Origin: a virus
DNA: 64,000 bases
Reading direction: 5' to 3' (one strand)
Virus record (IMG/VR): IMGVR_UViG_3300009149_000027
Coordinates: 3,060-67,059 of that record
A model generated the notes under the pieces. The model saw only the letters and a program-made list of their open reading frames with translations, did no database searches and was not told the origin of the DNA. The position numbers were made by a program, and so were the translations under genes. Shown piece after piece: positions 3,339-35,456 of this stretch; the first letter of the stretch is position 1, and each line of letters starts with the position of its first letter.

Positions 3339-3367
3339 TTGCATATTGCATAACAATGCGTTATACT
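3339..3367 (+). promoter_or_regulatory. sigma70-type promoter for tnpB (probably leaderless)
   Basis: TTGCAT-17 bp-TATACT, ATG at 3374. Confidence 0.55.
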
Positions 3368-3373
3368 GCATCT

Positions 3374-4495
3374 ATGAAAACGTACAAATATCGCATTTAC
3401 CCAACAACGGCCCAAGAGACAATTCTGGCTAAGATGCTAGAAGAGTGTCGCTGGCTGTACAACAAAGTTCTGGAAACCCGTAAAAAAAGCTATGAGTTGC
3501 AAGGTGTGTCCCTGGGCAACTACGATACAATGACCATGATTCCAGATTGGAAGCTAAATAGACCTTCTCTCAAAGCTGTTCATTCTCAAGTTCTGCAAAA
3601 TGTAAATATGCGTGTTGACCTGGCTTTTCAAGCCTTTTTTCGACGTGTCAAAGCTGGTGAAACTCCCGGTTACCCCCGATTCAAGGGCTATGGCCGCTAC
3701 GATAGCATGACGTTTCCGCAATACGGGAACGGTGCAAAACTGGTAGGTAATGTTCTAACTCTATCTAAGCTGGGCAATGTCAAGGTAAAACTTCACCGAG
3801 AGTTCTGCGGAACATCCAAGACGGTCACGATACGCCGTTCGTCTACCGGCAAGTGGTTCGCTTGTCTTTCTTGCGAATGCGAAGCAACGCCATTGCCAGA
3901 CGGACAAAAGGTTGTCGGAGTTGACGTGGGACTCTCCACATTTGCCACGCTGTCTAACGGCGAAAAGATAGACAACCCTCGATTCTTCAAAACAGAACAA
4001 GATGCACTCGGCAAAGCCCAACGCCGCATGGAGAAGGAAGCGAAGGGTACGCCACAACGGGCCAATCGTCGTAAAGTTGTGGCGCGTATCCACGAACGAA
4101 TAGCCAATCGGCGCACTGACTTTGCCCACAAAACTTCCCGCAAACTTGTCAACACCTACGGCACAATTGTCTTTGAGAAACTCGCCGTAGTCGATATGAT
4201 GTCCAATCACACAAAAGTCTTTGGCAACAAGCTTAATAAGAGTATCGCTGACGCCGCTTGGAGTCAGCTTGCACAGTTCACAGCCTACAAAGCGGAAGAT
4301 GCTGGCAGGTTGTTCTTGCAAGTTGACCCTCGCAATACCAGTAAAAAATGCTCTCGCTGTGGCTTGCTTGTTGAAAAAGACTTGAGTGTTCGTATTCATA
4401 ATTGTCCACATTGCGGCTTGGTTCTCGATAGAGACGTAAACGCTGCTATCAACATTCTTTCGTTGGGATTACAACGAATGGGTTCACATCCCTAG
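3374..4495 (+). CDS. tnpB: TnpB RNA-guided endonuclease
   Basis: YKYRIYPT N-terminal HTH, RuvC D (GVDVG), E (VFEKL), D (DRDVNAAINI), Zn finger CSRCG/CPHCG. Confidence 0.95.
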   Translation: MKTYKYRIYPTTAQETILAKMLEECRWLYNKVLETRKKSYELQGVSLGNYDTMTMIPDWKLNRPSLKAVHSQVLQNVNMRVDLAFQAFFRRVKAGETPGYPRFKGYGRYDSMTFPQYGNGAKLVGNVLTLSKLGNVKVKLHREFCGTSKTVTIRRSSTGKWFACLSCECEATPLPDGQKVVGVDVGLSTFATLSNGEKIDNPRFFKTEQDALGKAQRRMEKEAKGTPQRANRRKVVARIHERIANRRTDFAHKTSRKLVNTYGTIVFEKLAVVDMMSNHTKVFGNKLNKSIADAAWSQLAQFTAYKAEDAGRLFLQVDPRNTSKKCSRCGLLVEKDLSVRIHNCPHCGLVLDRDVNAAINILSLGLQRMGSHP

Positions 4496-6055: not shown

Positions 6056-6470
6056 CCCCCAATTGTGGAGTTTTCTATACGCAAAGGCTACGTTTACCCT
6101 CCGATTGCCCTCCGCTAGCGTCTTATGTGAACTACGTACATTTGTATGCCACTGGGCCGAAAATCGCATAATGATAGCCAAAAAGCCGGGTTTAGGCAAA
6201 AGTGCGGCGGCGGCCAGGCCGAAAATCCGCCGTCAACCGTGCGAATAGACATAATAAACCGAACTATACATAATACCGTGTACCCCTGCGCATATCCGAC
6301 GCAAAGCCGACGCATTGCATATGTCCGATTCATTTTTACCCGATTCTTTTTTACAAATCCGATTCATTTCTCCGATTACCCGAAGCTGGAACGCAAAAAT
6401 CGCCGATGCTCCCGGCGGTTTGCTTGCTCTCATGCGATTGTGGCCACTGCTGGCGGTGATTCTGCCCGAT

Positions 6471-7037
6471 TCAGTCGGCAGCTGCGTCCTCTGCCTCGTC
6501 TCCTGCGCCTACCTCTGCCTCAATCATGCGGTAATCACCCTCTACCTCGGTGGTATCCGCCTCAATTGCGGCCATTTCGTTGTTGATTGCGCCGAAATCC
6601 GGCGGCTTTGGTGCATCTGCGCCCCAGCTAAACACAACGTTGACATTGTTACCGGCTGGCGTGCCTAACTGGTACAGCCCCTGGATGGTAGAGCGCTGCA
6701 CGATGCAATGGGCGACGCCGGATAGCGCTTTGATGTCGTCTGTCCGGTTGTAGTGCTGCCAATATACCCGCTCCAGGTTGTCGAATTTGGCGATAGCGGT
6801 GGATTGGTACACGTCTACGTTTTGCAGCTTGTCTTGCTGCCACTGCTTACGGATTACGGCAACGTCGGTATAGATGTCATCACGCAAAAGGGGCAGGGGC
6901 CGGGCGGTATCCTCTTCATTAATGCGGTCTACAATCTCTCCTGATGGCAACCCCTGAAGCAACAAAGCGGCAATGGTAGCAAGGTCTTTTTCTCTTTGCC
7001 TCTCCGATCTTTTTGAAGTTATGCGGTTGCTTAACAT
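6471..7037 (-). CDS. terminase small subunit-like HTH protein
   Basis: HTH-like N-terminus, D..VIRKQW, AKFDNLERVYW, GVAHCIVQRSTIQGL pattern, acidic tail; recognised from memory of phage TerS-like proteins. Confidence 0.6.
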   Translation of the reverse strand: MLSNRITSKRSERQREKDLATIAALLLQGLPSGEIVDRINEEDTARPLPLLRDDIYTDVAVIRKQWQQDKLQNVDVYQSTAIAKFDNLERVYWQHYNRTDDIKALSGVAHCIVQRSTIQGLYQLGTPAGNNVNVVFSWGADAPKPPDFGAINNEMAAIEADTTEVEGDYRMIEAEVGAGDEAEDAAAD

Positions 7038-7983: not shown

Positions 7984-8190
7984 ATGACATACCGTCAATT
8001 TGTAGCCCATTATAAGAGAAACGTACTTCCCCACATTCAAGCCACCTACGAAAAGGGCGGGCGAAAAGACATCCCCGCACGGCGTCAGGCGTTCAACGAA
8101 GAAATGGACAGCCTTTGTCGCAGTGGCCAGATCACTGACAAGCAGGCGAGAACCTGGGACGGATTGCCCCGAAGCCTTGCCAAAAAGTAA
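7984..8190 (+). CDS. hypothetical protein
   Basis: GAGGAG RBS. Confidence 0.7.
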   Translation: MTYRQFVAHYKRNVLPHIQATYEKGGRKDIPARRQAFNEEMDSLCRSGQITDKQARTWDGLPRSLAKK

Positions 8191-8246
8191 GCCGCCACAT
8201 AACACAACCGGGGAGGGTTGCCCCTCCCCCATGAAAGGATCTGGCC

Positions 8247-8444
8247 ATGAAGGGCACCAAAGAATTTGAGGAACTACAGAGGGAATTCGAGAAGCAAGCC
8301 CCCAAGGTGACACGCCACCCCGTCGAGCGGGTCGATAAGGGTGAGAAGGTCCCCGCCGATGTGTTCTACCGGCACGGAAGCACAAATGAACTATTTCACA
8401 CGTTCATGCTGGGCTATTCATTTGCTAAATATATCTATCAATAG
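8247..8444 (+). CDS. hypothetical protein
   Basis: AAGGA RBS. Confidence 0.65.
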   Translation: MKGTKEFEELQREFEKQAPKVTRHPVERVDKGEKVPADVFYRHGSTNELFHTFMLGYSFAKYIYQ

Positions 8445-8507
8445 GAGGGGGGATTCCCAATCTATCCGACGTATCCGACACACTTTTACACGAGGAGAAA
8501 ACGACCG

Positions 8508-8810
8508 ATGCAAGGCAAGGACATAGCAACTATCATCATCCAGCAATTGGGCGGCTACGGGAAGCTGAAGGCCATGATCAACGCCCGCAATATGGCGTAT
8601 GACGACAATTCCCTTTCGTTCCGCTTCTCAGGGTATCGCAAGGCTGTTTTTTGTCGAATCACCCTCACCAGCCTGGATCTCTACCACATGCGCCTTTTCA
8701 AGGTGGACAAATACGGGACAATCAAAACCGCATTCGAGTTGGGCGGAATGTATAACGACATGCTGATCCCCGTCTTTGAATCGGCCACCGGCCTACGCCT
8801 GAGTTTATAG
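8508..8810 (+). CDS. conserved-looking hypothetical phage protein
   Basis: GAGGAG RBS; A.TI..QLGG ... FE..TGL.LSL pattern. Confidence 0.7.
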   Translation: MQGKDIATIIIQQLGGYGKLKAMINARNMAYDDNSLSFRFSGYRKAVFCRITLTSLDLYHMRLFKVDKYGTIKTAFELGGMYNDMLIPVFESATGLRLSL

Positions 8811-8830
8811 CCAAGAGGAGAAAATAACCG

Positions 8831-9106
8831 ATGCTAACCCGTGATGAACACTTCACCAAAATTAACGACTATGCCCACATGACCGTAGGCGAAGAGTGGG
8901 AGATCGACAAAGAGACCTATTGGTATTTTCTGGAATGCTTGCCCCCCCTGGCGATGGCTCACGGTTGCTTTTGGATGAGCGAATTTACCAAAGGCAGCGT
9001 AACGGGCCGATACCGCAAGCAGGGGGATCGCTACTTCGCATCTGAGCAGGACATCCGCACAGATCCCCTGTTCCCCACCAAAGCCGAAAGAATGTGCTGG
9101 GCCTAA
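8831..9106 (+). CDS. DUF1419-like protein
   Basis: EID.ETYWYFLECLPPL..F.MSEF..GSVT pattern. Confidence 0.55.
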   Translation: MLTRDEHFTKINDYAHMTVGEEWEIDKETYWYFLECLPPLAMAHGCFWMSEFTKGSVTGRYRKQGDRYFASEQDIRTDPLFPTKAERMCWA

Positions 9107-9489: not shown

Positions 9490-9786
9490 ATGACCAACCC
9501 TATCACTTACGGCACCTGGGAAGTTTCCAAGGACGCTACGCCCGACTATGCCCCACAGTTTACCATCTACGCCGAAGACACCGGGGAGCGTGTGGCGACT
9601 GTCTTCCAGACCCCTGCAAATGCCCGACTGATCGCCGCAGCCCCTGATATGCTGCGGGCGCTGAAATTGGCCGATGAGTACATCTACGAAACCATCTATG
9701 AGGCAACGCCCAGAACAAGCGTCAAGGATTCAGGTCGAATACTGCGCGCCGTTGTTGACGCCATTTCCCTAGCCACGGAGGGCTAA
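9490..9786 (+). CDS. phage protein of the ANARLIAAAP family
   Basis: ANARLIAAAPDML motif; GAGGAG RBS. Confidence 0.75.
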   Translation: MTNPITYGTWEVSKDATPDYAPQFTIYAEDTGERVATVFQTPANARLIAAAPDMLRALKLADEYIYETIYEATPRTSVKDSGRILRAVVDAISLATEG

Positions 9787-9789
9787 CCC

Positions 9790-10011
9790 ATGACCGACGA
9801 GGACAAAACCACTATCCGCACGATGCAACGCAACCTGATGCAGATCAAGAGAACGGGGAAAGCGCCCATCAATCTGGTGCAGTATCAGAAGATGGGGCTA
9901 ATCGCCATCCGACGCAAAAACGTAAAACTGGCTTCGGGCCGAACGGAAAAGATATTTGACCGGCTGCTACTGACCGACAAAGGCAAGCGCACCCTCTCCG
10001 CAATTGTCTAA
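9790..10011 (+). CDS. basic hypothetical protein
   Basis: GGAGG RBS. Confidence 0.6.
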   Translation: MTDEDKTTIRTMQRNLMQIKRTGKAPINLVQYQKMGLIAIRRKNVKLASGRTEKIFDRLLLTDKGKRTLSAIV

Positions 10012-23652: not shown

Positions 23653-24117
23653 TTAGATGTGCGTCCAGGATTCTTCGTTTACAGCACGATAAACAGTGCT
23701 TTTGGATATGCCGTACTTTTCAATCAGATTTATCACAGTCATGCCATTTTTTCGGTCTTCCCGCATATTTAATACTTCCTCGTCTGTAAGTTTTGATTTA
23801 CCGTGGTCTTCCCCCCTGGGGGAATTGTTGCGCCCTTTGTGTGTTTTGTCGTCCGCGTTGACTTGGTTGTCGCCAAGGAATAGGTGTTTTGGATTCACGC
23901 ACGCTGGTACGTCGCACTCATGAAGGACAAGTAGCCCATTTGGGATTGGACCATTGTGTAATTCCCAGGAGAAACGGTGGGCGTATGTCGTTTTTTTGTC
24001 TACTTGCAACTTTCCATATCCGTCTGAACTGGTAGAGGCTGTCCACAGCCAGCATCCTCTAGGACAATTCTTGTTGACTTTCTCCCAAAAATCTTGTTCT
24101 GTTTTCTTCCTTGTCAT
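23653..24117 (-). CDS. HNH homing endonuclease with C-terminal HTH
   Basis: FWEKV..CWLW..GYG..AHR..VLHECD...CVNPKHL..N..GE.HG.SKLT. Confidence 0.9.
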   Translation of the reverse strand: MTRKKTEQDFWEKVNKNCPRGCWLWTASTSSDGYGKLQVDKKTTYAHRFSWELHNGPIPNGLLVLHECDVPACVNPKHLFLGDNQVNADDKTHKGRNNSPRGEDHGKSKLTDEEVLNMREDRKNGMTVINLIEKYGISKSTVYRAVNEESWTHI

Positions 24118-24341
24118 GGTGTACCCCTTCGGATGGAATAGAAAACGCCTATTCTGAATTATGCTCAGGACAGCAAAGATCTGCTGACCAGGGAAGCATA
24201 CAGACAATGGGTTTGTCCGTTTGCTGTCCTGAGCATACGCCAGAATAGGCGTTAGCTTTATCCATCCCTGGTCAAGGGATTGTGTGCGATGACGGTTCCC
24301 AGGCCAGTCATCGGTCGGCGCCTTGTGTTGCGCCTGAGAAA

Positions 24342-24370
24342 ATTGTATCACGAGCCGGGGGATTTGTCAA
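24342..24370 (-). promoter_or_regulatory. sigma70-type promoter upstream of HNH leader
   Basis: TTGACA-17-TACAAT. Confidence 0.7.
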
Positions 24371-25617: not shown

Positions 25618-25866
25618 TCATCGCTCCACCTCCGCACCGTTGGCCGGGGTCGTGGTTGATGGTAGACATTCTAGCACGTCATCAGGCATGACCCCCAGGG
25701 CTTCACAGAACTTGCCCAGCGAGCCGCTGGTGAACGTGTCGCCGCCCAGCCACTTGCTGACCGAGTTGGATGCAACGCCCATGCGCCGGGCTAACTCTGC
25801 CTGGGATTGGATGCCCTGGTCGAGCATCAAGTAATTGATTTTCTTGCGGTCAAATCGGATCTGCAT
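25618..25866 (-). CDS. Cro/XRE-family HTH regulator
   Basis: SQAELARRMGVASNSVSKWL..FCEALGV; first gene after leftward promoter. Confidence 0.85.
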   Translation of the reverse strand: MQIRFDRKKINYLMLDQGIQSQAELARRMGVASNSVSKWLGGDTFTSGSLGKFCEALGVMPDDVLECLPSTTTPANGAEVER

Positions 25867-25913
25867 AATTGGTCCCTTTCGTGTGAATGTCTGCGGTTGT
25901 TACTGCTAAATTC

Positions 25914-25942
25914 AGTATATACCAGTTTCCTACGAATGTCAA
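25914..25942 (-). promoter_or_regulatory. leftward promoter of divergent pair
   Basis: TTGACA-17-TATACT. Confidence 0.8.
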
Positions 25943-25971
25943 GCAGTTTGTGATTATTCGCATATTGGGTA

Positions 25972-26000
25972 TTGACAACGTGTATAAAATAGTGTATACT
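25972..26000 (+). promoter_or_regulatory. rightward promoter of divergent pair
   Basis: TTGACA-17-TATACT. Confidence 0.8.
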
Positions 26001-26039
26001 AAATTTATCAAACAAAAGATGCGGCGCAAGGAGGGCAAG

Positions 26040-26477
26040 ATGATTGACAAGAAAACAGAGAAAAGATTTTGGGCCAAAGTAGACAAAATGGGCAATGGCG
26101 AATGCTGGGAATGGACGGCACAGCGCGATCGCTATGGGTATGGCAGATTTTGGATTGGTAGCCGCAGGGTGCAATCCCCCCGTTTTTCTTGGGAAATTCG
26201 CAATGGGGCTATTCCCGACGGCATGTTTGTCTGTCACTCTTGTGACAATCGGGGATGTGTAAATCCCGATCACTTGTGGATCGGAACGAATCAAGAGAAC
26301 ATGACAGACAAGATGCTGAAGGACAGACATGGAACCGCAAAGCTTACAAACAAGGAAGTTTTGGAAATTCGAGATGCATACCCAGGGCAAACACAGAAGC
26401 AACTTGGCGAGAAGTACAAAGTAGATCACTCAATCATTGGAAAAATTGTACGACGCCAACGATGGACGCACATCTAA
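26040..26477 (+). CDS. HNH homing endonuclease with C-terminal HTH
   Basis: RFWAKVDK..CWEW..GYG..VCHSCDN..CVNPDHL.GT..EN. Confidence 0.9.
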   Translation: MIDKKTEKRFWAKVDKMGNGECWEWTAQRDRYGYGRFWIGSRRVQSPRFSWEIRNGAIPDGMFVCHSCDNRGCVNPDHLWIGTNQENMTDKMLKDRHGTAKLTNKEVLEIRDAYPGQTQKQLGEKYKVDHSIIGKIVRRQRWTHI

Positions 26478-27340: not shown

Positions 27341-27586
27341 ATGAGTAATTGCCGACACACTCGCATCGTGAACGAATTTCAAAACGTCATGCTGGGCGAT
27401 TCTGGAGTTGTAGACGAGATCCAGTATGCAACATGCCTTGATTGCGGCGCATCGTGGGACACGGATGGCGAGATTGACGAAGCTGACGCCGCTATAGAAT
27501 TGTACCTCGATTCGGCGGATGAAGAGATTGACATTGGCCCGCACTTCGACGCATTTGGCGACAGTGGAAAAGATTGGGAGATTTAA
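27341..27586 (+). CDS. acidic hypothetical protein
   Basis: CLDCG; packed gene run. Confidence 0.55.
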   Translation: MSNCRHTRIVNEFQNVMLGDSGVVDEIQYATCLDCGASWDTDGEIDEADAAIELYLDSADEEIDIGPHFDAFGDSGKDWEI

Positions 27587-27647
27587 CCGCACACCGCACC
27601 CGCTGGTGACTGCCAGCCGGGAACTTTCACAAAGGAGATTGAACACG

Positions 27648-28523
27648 ATGGGTACATTAGCCAGCAAGATCGCAAAAGCCAGCATGGGGCTGGGCGGGAA
27701 GCTGAAGGCCGACGCCCGCAACAAAGAGCAGAATTACAATTACATCAGCGCCGACAAGGTTCTGAGCGTAGCCGGTCAAGTCCTGGCCGAGGTTGGGGTA
27801 GCTTGCTTCCCGGCCATCGTCCGCACCAGCATGGACGTAATCGACCGGGGCAATGGTAAAGCCCGCTACGATGCCGGTGTGGAATTTGCCTTCACCCTGG
27901 CCGACGAAGACGGTACAATGGAAATGCCTTGGGTCGGCTTTGGCAGTGATTACAGCGTGCCGGACAAAGCCATCTACAAGGCCATCACTAGCGGCCACAA
28001 GTATTTTTTGATGAAGCTGCTGAACATTGGCGAGGGGAACGAGGACGGGGAACATGATGTGGCCCAGGCCGAAAAGCCCGCACAGCGCCCCGCCTACACG
28101 TCTCAGCGCAACCCAGCCGACTCCCTGCCCGACCGCATGGAGGATTACGGTCCGCCGCTGGACTATGACAACCCATTCACGGGCAACGGACTCAGCAAAG
28201 CCGCCGCCGGATTCTTGGAGAAATGCCGGACTTACCAGTCCGAAGATCCGAAACCCTGCTCCGAGGCGATGTACCGCTATTTGGTCGGAACTGTGAACTA
28301 TGCCACTGAGAAGGACGCCCACACCGCCATCCTCAGCGAAATGGTAGGCAGTCCGGTTGACAGCGAGAACCGCCCCGGCTACACGCTGACCAAGAAACTG
28401 CTTGACACCTTGCCCGCCACCAAGCAGAACAAGGAAACCAAAGAGAACGAGCCGAACCCCGAACACGTTCCGGCCATCCTGGAAGCCATTAAAGAAATTT
28501 GGAAGGCCACGAAAGCCGCCTGA
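27648..28523 (+). CDS. ERF-family single-strand annealing recombinase
   Basis: K...N..QNY.Y....V; G.D...DKA.YKA.T...KY.L. Confidence 0.85.
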   Translation: MGTLASKIAKASMGLGGKLKADARNKEQNYNYISADKVLSVAGQVLAEVGVACFPAIVRTSMDVIDRGNGKARYDAGVEFAFTLADEDGTMEMPWVGFGSDYSVPDKAIYKAITSGHKYFLMKLLNIGEGNEDGEHDVAQAEKPAQRPAYTSQRNPADSLPDRMEDYGPPLDYDNPFTGNGLSKAAAGFLEKCRTYQSEDPKPCSEAMYRYLVGTVNYATEKDAHTAILSEMVGSPVDSENRPGYTLTKKLLDTLPATKQNKETKENEPNPEHVPAILEAIKEIWKATKAA

Positions 28524-28573
28524 ACCCATCCGCCGCATCCCCCGGCGGCATAGCAGAGAGGAGAATTGAGACG

Positions 28574-28759
28574 ATGGATGCAAAAGAGATCACCAAAATG
28601 ATGAATCGGATCATGGTTAAGATTGACAAGCTCCCCGAATTTCCGGGCCTGTTGGATGAGGCATTGGGCGACGTGTGGAACGCCGCCGAACATGCAAAGA
28701 ATTTGTTTTCGGACGATGACCTGTACACCACTGAAGTCGAATCGGCACAGGAGGATTGA
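28574..28759 (+). CDS. hypothetical protein
   Basis: GAGGAG RBS. Confidence 0.6.
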   Translation: MDAKEITKMMNRIMVKIDKLPEFPGLLDEALGDVWNAAEHAKNLFSDDDLYTTEVESAQED

Positions 28760-28762
28760 CCC

Positions 28763-29044
28763 ATGAACCGCATCAACTATAACGCCGCCCTAAACTGGAC
28801 CCTGGCCTTTATCGCCGCCATCGTCGTCCTGATTCTGCTAACCCAGCCCGCAGGGGCAGCCAGCGGCGGTGCAACGCCAGGGTTAGCCCGCTACAACGCC
28901 TATGTCGTCCAACTCCACAACGTGGGTTGCACCCCGCTGTGGGTATCCTGGGGTCGCTCTTACTGGAAGTGCCCGCCTAATCAGTGGTGGGTGGTCCGGT
29001 ACTACGAATCCAGCGACACGGCGACTATTCGCCGGTTGCGATAA
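28763..29044 (+). CDS. small secreted protein
   Basis: Signal-peptide-like N-terminus; GGAGG RBS. Confidence 0.6.
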   Translation: MNRINYNAALNWTLAFIAAIVVLILLTQPAGAASGGATPGLARYNAYVVQLHNVGCTPLWVSWGRSYWKCPPNQWWVVRYYESSDTATIRRLR

Positions 29045-29351
29045 CTAGACATAACCAGGCGACGCCCGACGAGCGACCACGCAGAGGGCCGGAGTGGTAG
29101 GGTCGCTGAGACACCCGGTAAGCGTCAAGTGTTTCTTCTCCTTGGTGGCTGATTCAGAGGTATCCCCGCCTCTGGATTGGGGGGGGGGATCCTGGCCCCC
29201 AGGTTGTCAAGGAAAAATACAATGGACGAATGCAGAATCACCTACAGCTTCACCGGCACGCTCCTAACAATCTGGCAACTGTGCCAGGGACATGCCGAGC
29301 CGATACGATTTTATCGCTGGGGGCAGTACGGGCCTCGGTGGATTGGATGAA

Positions 29352-29870
29352 ATACCCGCTGCCGTGACTCGTGACGACAGGCTCGAAAGAGCGACTGACA
29401 CCCCCTCGACGGCACGGCGGCGCAGTAAATGCCAGACACCGGTCCGGGTAGCTCCCGGAAGCATCTAGGCATCGAGCAGGTGGAAGGCCTGTGCAGGCAT
29501 CACACCTGCTGCCGTGCTCGTGACACCCGACTGAGAAGCGGCACACACCGAACCAGCGTACAGCCATAGGGTCAAGGGGCTTGACGACACGGTGGCGGAT
29601 TACAACCTAACGGCAAACGGGAGCCGCAGGGCCGCAGCAGCGAAATGGTCCACGAAGATACCCGACCGCAGCACACCCGTAGGCGCAACGCCACAGAGGG
29701 GAGGGCCAATTACACCACAAGGTTGGAAACCAGCCGCCGGTGAATGGAAGCACCGGCGGCGCAATAGAATGAGAAGAAGCAATGCAGCCGGGGCGGGGAC
29801 GTTTGGATGGCATATCAACATCGAATATGCAGCCTGAGAAATGGCCCCGCCCCGAACTGCAAATAGCGAG
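29352..29870 (+). ncRNA. putative structured non-coding RNA (unclassified; strand inferred)
   Basis: No convincing ORF; many GC-rich stems and a GAAA tetraloop on the + strand. Confidence 0.5.
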
Positions 29871-29882
29871 AGGGAGAGAACG

Positions 29883-30272
29883 ATGACACGTAATTTGTTC
29901 AGTATTGCATCTGCTATCATTCTCCTGGGCATTCTCACCGCCCACGCCGGCCCCAGCACTACCATTTCAGGCACAGTCTATCTCGACCCATCACACCCCG
30001 GTCAGGTCGTCAGCATCGGTCTGCCCCCGGTCTCAGGGTGGCCGGTGGCGCTGTGCCAGGGGGACGACTGCCAGGATACGCAGACGGGCAGCGCAGGGGA
30101 CTTTAGCTTCCCGGACCTGGCAAACGGGGAGTATGTCGTGAGCGTACCTCTGGGGAACGGGGAGACGCACAGCGTGGCCCTGGCGATTGGGGAGGCGGGG
30201 ATACCGTCACCGGTGTTGGTGAGTGTGGCGGGGTGGCGGTGGCGGGTGATGTTGCCGATGGTGGGGAGGTGA
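29883..30272 (+). CDS. exported SdrD-B/carboxypeptidase-regulatory-like domain protein
   Basis: Signal peptide; ISGTVY.D..G..V.L..T...G.F.F..L..G.Y; ends RVMLPMVGR. Confidence 0.75.
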   Translation: MTRNLFSIASAIILLGILTAHAGPSTTISGTVYLDPSHPGQVVSIGLPPVSGWPVALCQGDDCQDTQTGSAGDFSFPDLANGEYVVSVPLGNGETHSVALAIGEAGIPSPVLVSVAGWRWRVMLPMVGR

Positions 30273-30274
30273 GC

Positions 30275-30526
30275 ATGAAACTTGTAACGATTATTTGCGA
30301 TGGGGTCACAGACGTGCATCTTCCGCATCCGGACGGGACCTATGCAACCCTCTGCGGAATGGACGGAGACGACTATGATGATACTGGCGTTTTTGGCGGG
30401 GCGGTGGATCAACGAACCGTCAAGACGCCCAGGGGCGCAAAGGTCAGTTGCCGGAAATGCTGGGACATTTGGAGCCATGCATCTCAGTTCACCGTAGGCG
30501 TTTTTTCTGATAATGCCAAAACCTGA
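30275..30526 (+). CDS. Cys/His hypothetical protein
   Basis: GGAGGT RBS; TLCG and VSCRKC. Confidence 0.6.
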   Translation: MKLVTIICDGVTDVHLPHPDGTYATLCGMDGDDYDDTGVFGGAVDQRTVKTPRGAKVSCRKCWDIWSHASQFTVGVFSDNAKT

Positions 30527-30572
30527 TTTTTGGATTGATTGAGCACTTGCAAGGCCGCCAAATAATTGCACC

Positions 30573-30601
30573 TTGACATCCGCAAACAACCATGAGACAA
30601 T
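30573..30601 (+). promoter_or_regulatory. sigma70-type promoter
   Basis: TTGACA-17-GACAAT. Confidence 0.55.
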
Positions 30602-30716
30602 GAGCGCAATATAAAAGCCTTGTGCAATGCTCAACACATTGCACAAGGCCACGCACGAAGCCGGGACTAGCGGCGTCGGCGTTGCGCAAAGCATATCATA
30701 CGCTTTATGCAACCCC

Positions 30717-30752
30717 AAGAGTCCTGGCCAATCGGCTGGGACTCTTTTTTGT
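30717..30752 (+). terminator. intrinsic terminator
   Basis: AAGAGTCCTGGCC/GGCTGGGACTCTT stem plus T run. Confidence 0.8.
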
Positions 30753-30771
30753 TTAGCGCGCGGGAGACGCA

Positions 30772-31038
30772 ATGGAAGAAAAACTTGCAAGATTGGAAAA
30801 GCAGGCCCTTGCGCTTGATGCAAGGATAGAAAAGGCACGCAAGGCCGCCGAGAGCGAATATGCAACATTCTATGAAGTGCATACTCAGGCCAGGTGGCGG
30901 CCAGACCGCAACCGGTGGACGGTGCGCCGCAACGGTGCAGGATTTGCCCACATTGCATATTGCAAGACGAGAGCCGAAGCCGTGGGTCTTGCACGGCGGG
31001 TCAACGCAATTATTGAATCTATTATTGCAGGAGAATAG
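30772..31038 (+). CDS. hypothetical protein
   Basis: GGGAG RBS. Confidence 0.6.
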   Translation: MEEKLARLEKQALALDARIEKARKAAESEYATFYEVHTQARWRPDRNRWTVRRNGAGFAHIAYCKTRAEAVGLARRVNAIIESIIAGE

Positions 31039-31050
31039 GGAGTCAACATC

Positions 31051-31671
31051 ATGCAACGCCTACGCAGCATCACCGCAGTTGACGCATTGCTTGCAAGCGC
31101 GCTCCTGGCGCAAGCTCCGCACGCCGCAACCGTGTTTACCCGCCTTGCATCTGAGGCGGGTTTGTGGCCGACCTTGCATGGTTACCTTTACGCCGCCGCC
31201 CTCGAAGGCGCAACCTTCTATTTCGTACGCACGCACAATCGTAGATGGGCTGCATTTTTCGCCGTGGTCAGCATCTTGCATAATTTCGCCTACTATCTCA
31301 CGGACAGCCTCAGCATGGGCAACATCTTGCGGGCGTCTTTGATTTCGCTGGCTCTGCCCTTGGCCATCGCCGCATTCAGCGACGAGCGCCGCAAGCCCGC
31401 CACAGCGCTCACAAAAGCCGCCCCCGTTGCAATAGTGGCGAAGACCGCAAAAGCCCAGCCTGCGCCCGCACAGCGGCCCACGGTGGCAACGGGCAAGAAA
31501 CTCACAGCGCAGGAGCGCCGGGCAGAAGTCGAACGGCTGATTGCGTCCAAGGCTGTGACGAGCGAGGCTGAATTGGCCAAAATGTTTCAGGTTCACCCTA
31601 GCACTATTAACCGGGATGTGGCTGGGTTGCAAGAGGCCGGGGTGAGCGTCAACGGATTCGGAGGAAAGTAA
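31051..31671 (+). CDS. membrane protein with C-terminal HTH
   Basis: About four hydrophobic helices, Ala/Pro/Lys linker, ERRAEV..TSEAELAKMFQVHPSTINRDV (DeoR-type HTH). Confidence 0.8.
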   Translation: MQRLRSITAVDALLASALLAQAPHAATVFTRLASEAGLWPTLHGYLYAAALEGATFYFVRTHNRRWAAFFAVVSILHNFAYYLTDSLSMGNILRASLISLALPLAIAAFSDERRKPATALTKAAPVAIVAKTAKAQPAPAQRPTVATGKKLTAQERRAEVERLIASKAVTSEAELAKMFQVHPSTINRDVAGLQEAGVSVNGFGGK

Positions 31672-31786
31672 ACCATGTTTGTAAAAGTTTCTTTAGCTGT
31701 TTTGACTTTTGTGTCAGGCATCAACGCCGCCGCGTTCTTGTGTGTGTTTGCCTGTACGTGTTTGTGGAAAAGACGGAGGTATAGCT

Positions 31787-33538: not shown

Positions 33539-33567
33539 TTGACAAGTGTATCATAGCGTGGTATACT
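33539..33567 (+). promoter_or_regulatory. sigma70-type promoter
   Basis: TTGACA-17-TATACT with extended TG. Confidence 0.8.
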
Positions 33568-34763: not shown

Positions 34764-34955
34764 TGTAGGTAGCGAAGACATGCCACCAAGCGTACTCGCC
34801 TAAGTCAACGGTTTTTTTGTACCCCTCATACGTCCCCTCCGACACAATCGGATGGGGGTTAGGGTCAACCAAAAACGGGTCAACCGTTGGCGGGCGAACA
34901 GCTTGGTGGCTACCTTAACCTTCATCCGATTGTGTTTTGTTTAAGGAGACGTGAA

Positions 34956-35456
34956 ATGAGAAAACCACCAAAACCCATCCCGCCCATGACGGAAAAGCAC
35001 ATTGACCGTTTCTGGAAAAAGGTTGACGTGCAGGGAAAAGATGATTGCTGGTTATGGATTGCTGGAAAAGACGGATACGGCTATGGGGCGCAAAACATTG
35101 ATGGAAGAATAGTGAAGGCTCATCGTATTTCTTGGAAAATACACAACGGGAATATACCTAGCGGCCTGGATGTTTTGCATGATTGCGACACGCCAGCGTG
35201 CGTAAACCCAAAACACCTGTGGGTTGGCACACATACAGAAAACATGAATGACAAAAATCGCAAGGGGCGAAATGGCTTTCCATCACTCAAGGGAGAGGAG
35301 CATGGAAACGCAAAACTGACCGATGTGCTAGTGTTAGAAATACGTGCCGAGGCAAAGCGGGGGAGGAGCAAAAAATGGATGGCAAAAAAGTATAACGTTG
35401 ATCCATCTACCATCAGTGATGTTGTGCGCCGAAAATCATGGAAGCACGTCAAATAG
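34956..35456 (+). CDS. HNH homing endonuclease with C-terminal HTH
   Basis: RFWKKVD..CWLW..GYG..AHR..VLHDCD...CVNPKHL..GE.HGNAKLT; AAGGAG RBS. Confidence 0.9.
   Translation: MRKPPKPIPPMTEKHIDRFWKKVDVQGKDDCWLWIAGKDGYGYGAQNIDGRIVKAHRISWKIHNGNIPSGLDVLHDCDTPACVNPKHLWVGTHTENMNDKNRKGRNGFPSLKGEEHGNAKLTDVLVLEIRAEAKRGRSKKWMAKKYNVDPSTISDVVRRKSWKHVK

Follow-up and report, generated by a model that had tools for sequence, protein, structure and literature searches.

We examined a gap between two genes of an uncultivated phage, in a stretch of 64,000 nucleotides (nt; hereafter the window) that comprises bases 3060–67059 of the 67,059-bp IMG/VR virus record IMGVR_UViG_3300009149_000027 (completeness estimate, 69%). 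The gap (29045–29882, 838 nt) extends from the stop codon of gp93 (TAA, 29042–29044) to the ATG of gp129 (29883). An earlier interpretation made from the letters alone (the sequence-only reading) had described it as a hairpin-dense, non-coding island of about 830 bp that harbored one or more undescribed structured RNAs. Its extent and non-coding character were borne out: 838 nt separate the two genes, and no convincing gene lies between them. Judged by sequence comparison, the gap is not one RNA gene; it is a composite of a conserved spacer, an open reading frame (ORF) of doubtful status, a strain-variable partial duplication, and a core that we call element E (29495–29885, + strand, about 390 nt). 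By the same comparison, this core is a conserved non-coding element common to one other uncultivated phage.

That second phage is represented by L085, a 31-kb contig from the metagenome-assembled genome of an uncultured member of the Caldilineaceae, which was reached via a homologue of gp93. It is the single relative of the gap that was recovered, and the comparison of element E rests on two sequences, the window and L085. The two are syntenic in blastn, which matched gp93 (73% identity), two segments of the gap (21 of 21 and 27 of 30 positions), 197 columns at 30568–30753 (69%), and a gene for a helix-turn-helix (HTH) protein. In L085, the gp93 homologue is followed by a 170-nt spacer like that at 29045–29221, a 76-residue CxxC ORF, a 320-residue DUF5131 gene (E = 2e-84), and the first copy of a motif that also occurs in the window; then come a DUF6948 gene, a Gly/Tyr/Asp-repeat gene, and a second copy of the motif, which opens the non-coding stretch of about 330 nt that is homologous to element E (8287–8615). 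A promoter, a structured RNA, and a terminator lie directly after this stretch, and then the HTH gene. In the window, 150 nt of hairpins separate the motif copies, and element E is followed by two extra genes. Between the two motif copies of L085, a 99-residue ORF (7984–8283, +) consists almost wholly of Gly/Tyr/Asp/Ser repeats.

Other searches for relatives were negative. Neither 28700–30300 nor L085 8284–8830 (blastn), nor gp93 (tblastn), had a match among GenBank phages. Single-protein searches of IMG/VR with the Erf-type annealing protein encoded upstream of the gap, with gp129, and with a 297-residue protein returned no relatives, and neither did an alignment of gp93. An alignment search with Erf did return 7 IMG/VR loci and 68 metagenome loci; these 75, together with 8 loci from a motif scan (83 loci, 357,758 nt), held nothing gap-like by blastn or nhmmer, and two-sequence profiles of element E found nothing in 99 loci. 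In two of the more distant Erf loci, a homologue of the HTH gene lies about 1 kb or less after Erf. The motif scans of IMG/VR gave 8, 0, and 2 loci, all of them chance matches that lacked flanking similarity. A DNA search of 401 genomes of the phylum of the L085 genome and 151 of its order recovered only that genome itself, and there is no second copy of the gap in the phage’s own genome.

Alignment of element E with its counterpart in L085 yielded 228 identical residues in 278 aligned columns, with 32 gaps; its score was 148, vs. 39.2 ± 7.6 for 200 shuffles. The identity lies in blocks (21/23, 13/16, 13/14, 14/20, and 21/27), with unalignable stretches between them, and the ungapped blocks of at least 14 nt are 65–93% identical. 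At third codon positions, gp93 is 47% identical between the two phages (71% for the protein) and the HTH gene 43% (44% for the protein); because these flanking positions are only 43–47% identical, the blocks of element E stand well above the silent-site level. No ORF in element E is common to the window and L085, the gaps are mostly not multiples of three, and the ORFs in the L085 element are not positional homologues. Element E is thus conserved far above the neutral level without encoding a protein, and therefore something functional, other than a protein, is present.

Element E opens with copy 2 of the motif, CATCACnCCyGCTGCCGTG-n1-2-TCGTGACACC (29498–29528, +), the core block of which (29505–29527) agrees with L085 8292–8314 at 21 of 23 positions. 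Helix A (copy 2, 29506–29595, +) pairs CTGC-TGCCGT (29506–29515) with ACGACA-[CG]-GTGG (29584–29595). The same bulged 4+6-bp helix is found at 29356–29420 and in L085 (8294–8303 with 8346–8358), and the U-G and G-U pairs of copy 2 can form on the + strand only. The best-conserved internal blocks (29662–29711, +; ungapped, 11/14, 13/14, and 14/20 identical to L085 8405–8452) include a purine-rich run that resembles a Shine-Dalgarno sequence but precedes no start codon. Hairpin H4 (29733–29760) is a perfect 10-bp stem, GCCGCCGGTG/CACCGGCGGC, with a folding free energy (ΔG) of –23 kcal/mol and z scores against shuffled sequences of –5.4 (+) and –5.9 (–); no T run follows it on the + strand. At this position L085 has a different hairpin, TTGTAC/GTACAA, ahead of a conserved AATGAG. 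The terminal hairpin, H5 (29783–29861; ΔG –40.6 kcal/mol, z –4.9), is a G+C clamp with a variable apical arm, in which TGCAG plus CGGGGCGGGG pairs with CCCCGCCCCG plus CTGCA around GCATAT/ATATGC; a conserved GAAsTGCAA follows. Its G+C stem and tail are identical in sequence in L085 (8524–8606), where the apical part is unrelated yet self-complementary, and the outer TGCAG/CTGCA pairing, as read from the sequence, is broken there at two of five positions. Hairpins thus occur at three positions common to both phages (helix A, the H4 site with its different sequence, and the clamp), and helix A and the clamp were recovered in both single folds and in the consensus. The last bases of element E overlap the ribosome-binding site (RBS) and ATG of gp129 (29870–29885).

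The remainder of the gap lies upstream. Its first 177 nt (29045–29221, +) form a conserved intergenic spacer, homologous to L085 6202–6369 (78% identity in aligned columns), with a G10 run (29179–29188), an AAGGA RBS (29209–29213), and a consensus fold of z –2.8 on either strand. After the doubtful 42-codon ORF (29222–29350, +) comes a 146-nt partial duplication of the 5′ end of element E (29351–29494, +), which was not seen in L085; the direct repeat (29354–29402 vs. 29504–29549) is 75.5% identical over 49 columns. The duplication holds motif copy 1 (29354–29375; 29355–29375 is identical to L085 7540–7560 at 21 of 21 positions), hairpin 1, H2 (29428–29473), and the 5′ arm of H3. Both H2 and H3 are lineage-specific hairpins.

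All five stems named in the sequence-only reading were found on inspection of the sequence. In addition to H4 and H5, they are hairpin 1 (29356–29420), in which CCGC-TGCCGT (29356–29365) pairs with ACGGCA-[CG bulge]-GCGG (29409–29420) and encloses GCTC-GAAA-GAGC (29381–29392); AGCAGGTG/CACCTGCT (29475–29510); and GTCAAG/CTTGAC (29571–29585). Folded singly, the chosen stems had z scores of –2.5 to –5.9 on either strand (200 shuffles each), values that are inflated because the stems were picked after the fact. The whole gap gave z –2.87 (+) and –3.60 (–), with 20 shuffles each. Fifteen sliding 150-nt segments of the gap averaged –0.83 (+) and –1.21 (–), vs. 0.01 and –0.04 for 113 flanking segments (Mann-Whitney P = 0.0018 and 0.0011, respectively). 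The description “hairpin-dense” holds insofar as the stems are real and the gap folds better than its flanks; the unbiased measures are modest. Two of the 25 inverted repeats listed (34 were found in the 64 kb) are inside the gap, which accounts for 1.3% of the window; the perfect 10-bp pair at 29733–29760 was seen separately as a third. A long-range pairing of 29130–29143 with 29768–29781 was dropped, as in L085 it has only 6 bp, 2.2 kb apart. The + strand of the gap is T-poor (A 215, C 237, G 266, T 120; 60% G+C), and its A>T skew is common to the operon. The 3′ end of the gp93 gene (28900–29050) has an unusually strong fold for a 150-nt segment (z –4.1 on + and –3.7 on –), and the strongest local structure of all lies outside the gap, at 30550–30750 (z –7.6 and –8.2).

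Consensus scans found no sigma-70-like promoter and no intrinsic terminator in 28400–30400 on either strand, and no promoter-like or terminator-like site inside L085 8284–8612. Neither H4 nor H5 is an intrinsic terminator: each is followed on the + strand by A/G-rich sequence, and neither was picked up by the scan. On the – strand, the clamp is followed by a T-rich tract, but no – strand gene feeds into it. The same scans detected both a promoter and a terminator at 30573–30746 and at L085 8630–8809, where they delimit the structured RNA mentioned above.

This RNA (30573–30755), 700 nt downstream of the gap, is a member of a new promoter-to-terminator family of about 140–155 nt with four helices. 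Its members are window 30573–30755 (+), L085 8630–8818, L119 4833–4969 (–), and L120 7095–7230 (+), and they have in common an invariant central block, CACGAAGCCGGG.C.AGCGGC. The window copy has a promoter (TTGACA-17-GACAAT, with a TG upstream) and a 13-bp terminator with a T run; both signals recur in L085 (TTGACA-17-GAyAAT across both phages, and a 13-bp terminator). It folds with z –5.6 (200 shuffles) and has no match in Rfam. With a covariance model derived from the phage pair, full-length copies were recovered from 2 of the order's other 150 genomes (52.6 and 35.3 bits), along with weaker matches that mostly covered the terminator only; profiles of the RNA gave weak matches alone among the 99 loci (best E = 0.015). 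When the four sequences are aligned, 99.1% of cells are paired, and two-sided changes affect 13 of the 31 pairs. The covariation score of 0.548 was reached by 0 of 500 shuffles (slid controls, 0.02–0.12), a result that is favored by the fitting of that alignment to the model. At the two bacterial loci, in Caldilineales genomes, the RNA has its own promoter-like sequence with a TATAAT box (read by eye), and a gene for a serine recombinase of 560–583 residues (Resolvase, Recombinase, and Zn-ribbon domains) begins about 45 nt past the terminator. In the phages, the RNA precedes the HTH-gene unit. The family probably comprises either leaders in which termination is conditional or small RNA genes of mobile elements. 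It was previously undescribed, and it stands before phage regulator genes and serine integrase genes alike. TGCAA/TTGCA words, possibly an operator or iteron array, are clustered at 30501–31500 (23 in 1 kb vs. a window mean of 2.8 per kb), across the RNA and the start of the HTH gene; in L085 they number 10 in bin 8501–9000 and 12 in bin 9501–10000.

The gap is embedded in a rightward (+) early operon, as assigned with Pfam and PHROGs: an HNH endonuclease (25887–26477), the Erf-type annealing protein (27519–28523; PF04404, E = 1.7e-8; phrog_155, E = 5e-18), small genes, and the HTH protein (31051–31671), all on the + strand. Both genes that border the gap are on this strand. The 93-residue gp93 has a signal peptide followed by a Cys-containing domain and four homologues (71–84% identity); the 129-residue gp129 is a single immunoglobulin-like domain with 543 matches. 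A Cro/CI-type HTH gene (25618–25866, –) is the first of a leftward replication operon that contains Lar, HNH, PriCT primase, DnaB loader, and helicase genes. The structural genes, including a Mu-like portal and protease, are on the – strand from 35.4 kb on. The phage is of temperate type, and its host is probably in the Caldilineales, a group of the Chloroflexota whose phages are almost unstudied.

Several further features of the window were noted. Three promoter-like sites have identical hexamers, TTGACA-17-TATACT (11 of 12 positions): 25914–25942 (–), 25972–26000 (+), and 33539–33567 (+). The first two stand back to back at the early-operon switch, where they overlap the start of the annotated HNH ORF. 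The window also has three HNH_3 endonuclease genes that are free-standing and carry C-terminal HTH domains (23653–24351, –; 25887–26477, +; 34887–35456, +), and the longest inverted repeat of the window (24144–24253; 34-nt arms, 91% complementary) is inside the first. A TnpB-type gene is located at 3356–4495 (+; OrfB_IS605, E = 1.6e-27; Cas12f1-like TNB domain; HTH_OrfB_IS605). The possibility that the gap holds a second copy of a TnpB guide RNA was rejected, as no similar sequence occurs elsewhere in the genome. A phage attachment site (attP) was rejected because the 67-kb record, 69% complete, has no tyrosine integrase or rve domain, and a replication origin because the gap has neither iterons nor an A+T-rich part.

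What, then, might element E do? Our preferred reading, which we hold tentatively, is that it acts in cis as an untranslated part of the early operon and, in addition, marks a joint of cassette exchange. The stretch is non-coding, homologous to that of L085 and under constraint; it has no promoter or terminator of its own and two helices conserved in sequence; and the motif copies surround different cargo in the two phages, with strain breakpoints nearby. That RNA of the + strand, rather than DNA, is the active form, and that the hairpins have the roles proposed here, we infer. Element E would ride untranslated in a polycistronic early transcript. The motif of about 30 nt, near the upstream stop codon, would open it and supply the 5′ arm of the bulged 10-bp helix A; several conserved, single-strand-like blocks would come next, and then the very stable G+C clamp. 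The hairpins may punctuate the message, as a processing site, a device for 3′-end protection, or an insulator, and would set the cassette genes upstream apart from the unit that follows (promoter, leader RNA, and terminator). The conserved sequence may double as a joint for the exchange or insertion of gene cassettes among related phages. In L085, the motif copies flank a two-gene insert (the DUF6948 and repeat-protein genes), with the DUF5131 gene upstream. If element E does act in cis, it would constitute a new sequence family among the few phage intergenic RNA or DNA signals described outside model phages.

A number of observations weigh against this reading. The consensus fold of element E was assessed with RNAalifold on the pairwise alignment and on 100 column-shuffled alignments. 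It was no better than chance (z –0.89 on + and –0.93 on –; structure conservation index (SCI), 0.35), with 21 and 16 of the 100 shuffled alignments folding at least as well, in a test of low power given two sequences and many indels. In the same test, the neighboring RNA gave z –10.7 (SCI, 0.71), the gp93 coding flank z –2.7, and the spacer z –2.8. Covariation, which the sequence-only reading had named as a test of its proposal, did not appear in element E: of the 14 pairs of helix A, 10 were unchanged, 4 had one-sided changes, and none had two-sided changes. The sole compensatory pair lies outside the element, and MAFFT alignments of it were too poor for a covariance model. An RNA function, a DNA function, and plain constraint on sequence thus look alike here, because the helices are kept in sequence and show no two-sided change. 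A hairpin-rich gap is insufficient evidence by itself; it was the comparison between phages that separated this gap, which lacks a conserved fold, from the genuine RNA family 700 nt downstream. Cues to the strand conflict as well. The U-G pairs of helix A copy 2 and of the clamp favor the + strand, whereas H2 is more stable on the – strand (–26.1 vs. –19.2 kcal/mol) and two strain variants fit the – strand only. Transcription of element E is itself inferred: the runs that contain the stretch comprise one DNA run (contigs; it may be the source sample) and no RNA run. Finally, the comparison has a single relative, and the higher identity of element E could partly reflect more recent exchange of the segment, not selection.

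Strain variation in the DNA run bears on the same question. One contig skips 29351–29397 (47 nt), so a co-occurring variant can do without this part of the gap, a further point against the preferred reading. The substitutions 29412 G>A, 29429 A>G, and 29441 G>A occur together on two contigs, one of which has additional changes at 29440, 29443, 29447, and 29455 and diverges completely after 29488. The change at 29412 breaks hairpin 1, whose 5′ arm is in the skipped segment. The changes 29447 G>A and 29455 C>T fall on both sides of one pair in the hairpin at 29443–29459, within H2, and convert G-C to A-U; by a rough estimate, the chance of such a double change is about 1 in 12. Together, the skip, the substitutions, and the divergence indicate that the left side of the gap varies and can in part be dispensed with, and that module joints lie within it. 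Signs of a mosaic phage population are also present across 27500–31700 in this run: contig depth is 10.4 at 27603–29257 vs. about 15 on both sides, loose contig ends occur at 27585, 27632, 29488, 30623, and 31669, and a 12%-diverged copy covers 29990–30146.

Could element E act as DNA? The motif and the blocks may be sites for protein binding or recombination, as in a module boundary sequence or a cluster of sites for a phage DNA-binding protein, with the hairpins as incidental palindromes; we regard this as unlikely. Different cargo lies between the motif copies in the two phages, strain contigs break and diverge within the gap, and the stems are kept by sequence with no compensation. In the window, the two halves of the motif co-occur at 29358/29368 and 29508/29518 only, and in L085 at 7543/7554 and 8295/8305 only; in three of these four copies the motif starts no more than 6 nt from an upstream stop codon or overlaps it. 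By position (layouts, motif copies, and strain breakpoints), element E is conserved sequence between non-homologous cargo, as at a mosaic boundary; no mechanism is implied by this. The word ACACC occurs 8 times on one strand of the gap vs. 1.5 expected from dinucleotide shuffles (P = 0.0005), and three copies are at aligned positions in L085. Yet the excess has P = 0.09 once corrected for all 5-mers, and L085 has only 3 copies vs. 1.4 expected (P = 0.15), with placement in loops judged by eye. The motif is not a dispersed operator, since each phage has two copies and none elsewhere in the window or L085. The gap, at 60% G+C, has no iteron array or A+T-rich stretch, and the replication genes are 7 kb away in another operon. 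Short conserved sequences at mosaic joints are an established proposal, at least as cited in PMC3029335; such a role would explain the spread of the sequence, but not the constraint on about 300 nt of blocks.

The gap might instead be filler with no function, made up of relics of decayed or displaced genes plus a local duplication, and alike in the two phages only through recent exchange of the segment. Such an account fits the lack of a conserved fold, the many indels, the internal duplication, the 47-nt presence/absence variant and substitutions within one sample, and the modest folding scores; the 42-codon ORF, moreover, looks like a stub where L085 has a 76-residue gene and then the 320-residue DUF5131 gene. 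We nonetheless find this account rather unlikely. Identity is concentrated in blocks (21/23, 13/14, 21/27) between unalignable stretches instead of being evenly spread, and the neighboring genes are near saturation at silent sites (43–47%). The same three positions bear hairpins in both phages, even if the sequence there has been replaced, and in one hairpin a double change between strains leaves the pairing intact.

The sequence-only reading had envisaged one or more undescribed structured RNAs. As considered here, these would be free-standing and act in trans, for example as a protein sponge with ACACC loops or as a large ribozyme-like RNA. The earlier observation that the gap matched no tRNA, tmRNA, or group I core was confirmed: ARAGORN found no gene in the window, and Rfam 15 gave no match at the gathering score in the whole window. 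Against 28700–30200, only four chance-level matches appeared (E = 0.94–5.6; 11.6–20.5 bits vs. thresholds of 41–57), and L085 6150–8900 had none at E ≤ 1, so neither locus matched a known family. A group I or II intron, a ribozyme, and a riboswitch were rejected for want of any Rfam signal. The proposal has in its favor a non-coding, conserved sequence absent from Rfam, one strand that is T-poor, A-rich, and C-rich, and hairpins that are individually strong; the ACACC copies would be unpaired, since there is no GGTGT complement. Nevertheless, neither phage has a promoter-like or terminator-like site here, whereas the small RNA next door has both. There is no covariation (SCI, 0.35). As single sequences, the window and L085 elements fold with z –2.52 and –1.60, and for the latter 4 and 5 of 100 shuffles fold as well. 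The copies also differ by 60 nt in length through many small indels. What survives of the earlier proposal is about 390 nt of conserved, non-coding sequence of no known family; an RNA like GOLLD or ROOL, or several RNA genes, did not emerge, and we consider a free-standing RNA quite improbable.

It is less probable still that protein-coding genes were missed, namely the 42-codon ORF and/or an 81-residue ORF that starts with GTG (29592–29837). The former keeps its RBS (AAGGA, 8 nt before the ATG) and start context in L085, but from the same conserved start L085 encodes a 76-residue CxxC..CxxC protein (6370–6600), and the two peptides have no BLASTP similarity at E ≤ 100. The 81-residue ORF has the least negative coding score in the gap (–0.003), but its frame is closed in L085 and the alignment contains frame-breaking indels. 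Every gap ORF tested scored negative on a hexamer coding measure (–0.003 to –0.44; –0.29 for the 42-codon ORF), which does not discriminate here, as the real gp129 (–0.12) and several neighboring ORFs are negative too. Of 15 gap frames tested, none matched Pfam and 14 had no match in PHROGs (the single match had E = 0.047); none of six gap ORFs looked up was present in a collection of 15 billion proteins from public gene callers that contains both flanking genes. The earlier claim of only one plausible ORF thus stands in that none of those six is in the collection and no family was convincingly matched; in all, 23 frames of at least 35 residues, stop to stop, overlap the gap (the longest, 125 residues, on the – strand). 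Missed genes would explain at most 129 of the 838 nt. A recoded or frameshifted gene was rejected: stop counts per frame are near the expectation from composition, and the G10 run joins only short frames.

Least probable of all is that element E founds a new class of cis-acting phage RNA, an untranslated, U-poor segment of 330–530 nt. Helix A, the ACACC loops, and the clamp would then either render the transcribing polymerase resistant to the conserved leader terminator downstream, as a put-like processive antiterminator, or else titrate an RNA-binding protein; either way, they would determine whether transcription of the early operon extends to the HTH regulator genes.

The preferred reading, a cis-acting untranslated segment that also serves as a joint, can be set beside known systems. 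The lambda sib retroregulator and the RNase III sites of T7 are cis-acting 3′ or intercistronic hairpin elements of phage early transcripts. Like them, element E is an untranslated segment with hairpins that lies directly after a stop codon in a polycistronic operon, lacks its own promoter, and possesses a very stable terminal stem. Unlike them, it is far longer (330–390 nt) and combines conserved unpaired blocks with a repeated 30-nt leader motif; no described family in Rfam matched it in the window or L085. GOLLD, ROOL, group I and II introns, and ribozymes are curated in Rfam. With GOLLD and ROOL, element E has in common that it is phage-borne, non-coding, and several hundred bases long; it differs in that it lacks an Rfam match, a conserved multi-helix fold, covariation, and a transcription unit of its own. 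The HK022 put and lambda nut sites are antitermination sites in RNA, put being a two-stem fold and nut consisting of boxA and boxB. Element E resembles them by position only, being in an early operon upstream of a strong intrinsic terminator (30717–30746; L085 8780–8809), at a distance of 0.85 kb in the window and 0.17 kb in L085; because no other promoter-like site lies between 30601 and 32998, the downstream genes must be reached through this terminator. In sponge RNAs of the CsrB type, a short motif is repeated many times in hairpin loops.

Mycobacteriophage stoperators, of which PMC3029335 gives 23–36 per genome, offer another comparison. The 30-nt motif is similarly asymmetric, stands at gene ends, and keeps one orientation relative to transcription, but it occurs only twice per phage and is not dispersed. 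The boundary sequences at mosaic joints, as that paper cites them, are short linkers, whereas element E spans hundreds of bases with internal structure, and recombination at it is deduced from layouts. Like those sequences, element E lies where related phages carry different cassettes, its copies flank inserts, and strain contigs break there; on this reading, the gap is a concrete joint at which such phages would trade gene cassettes.

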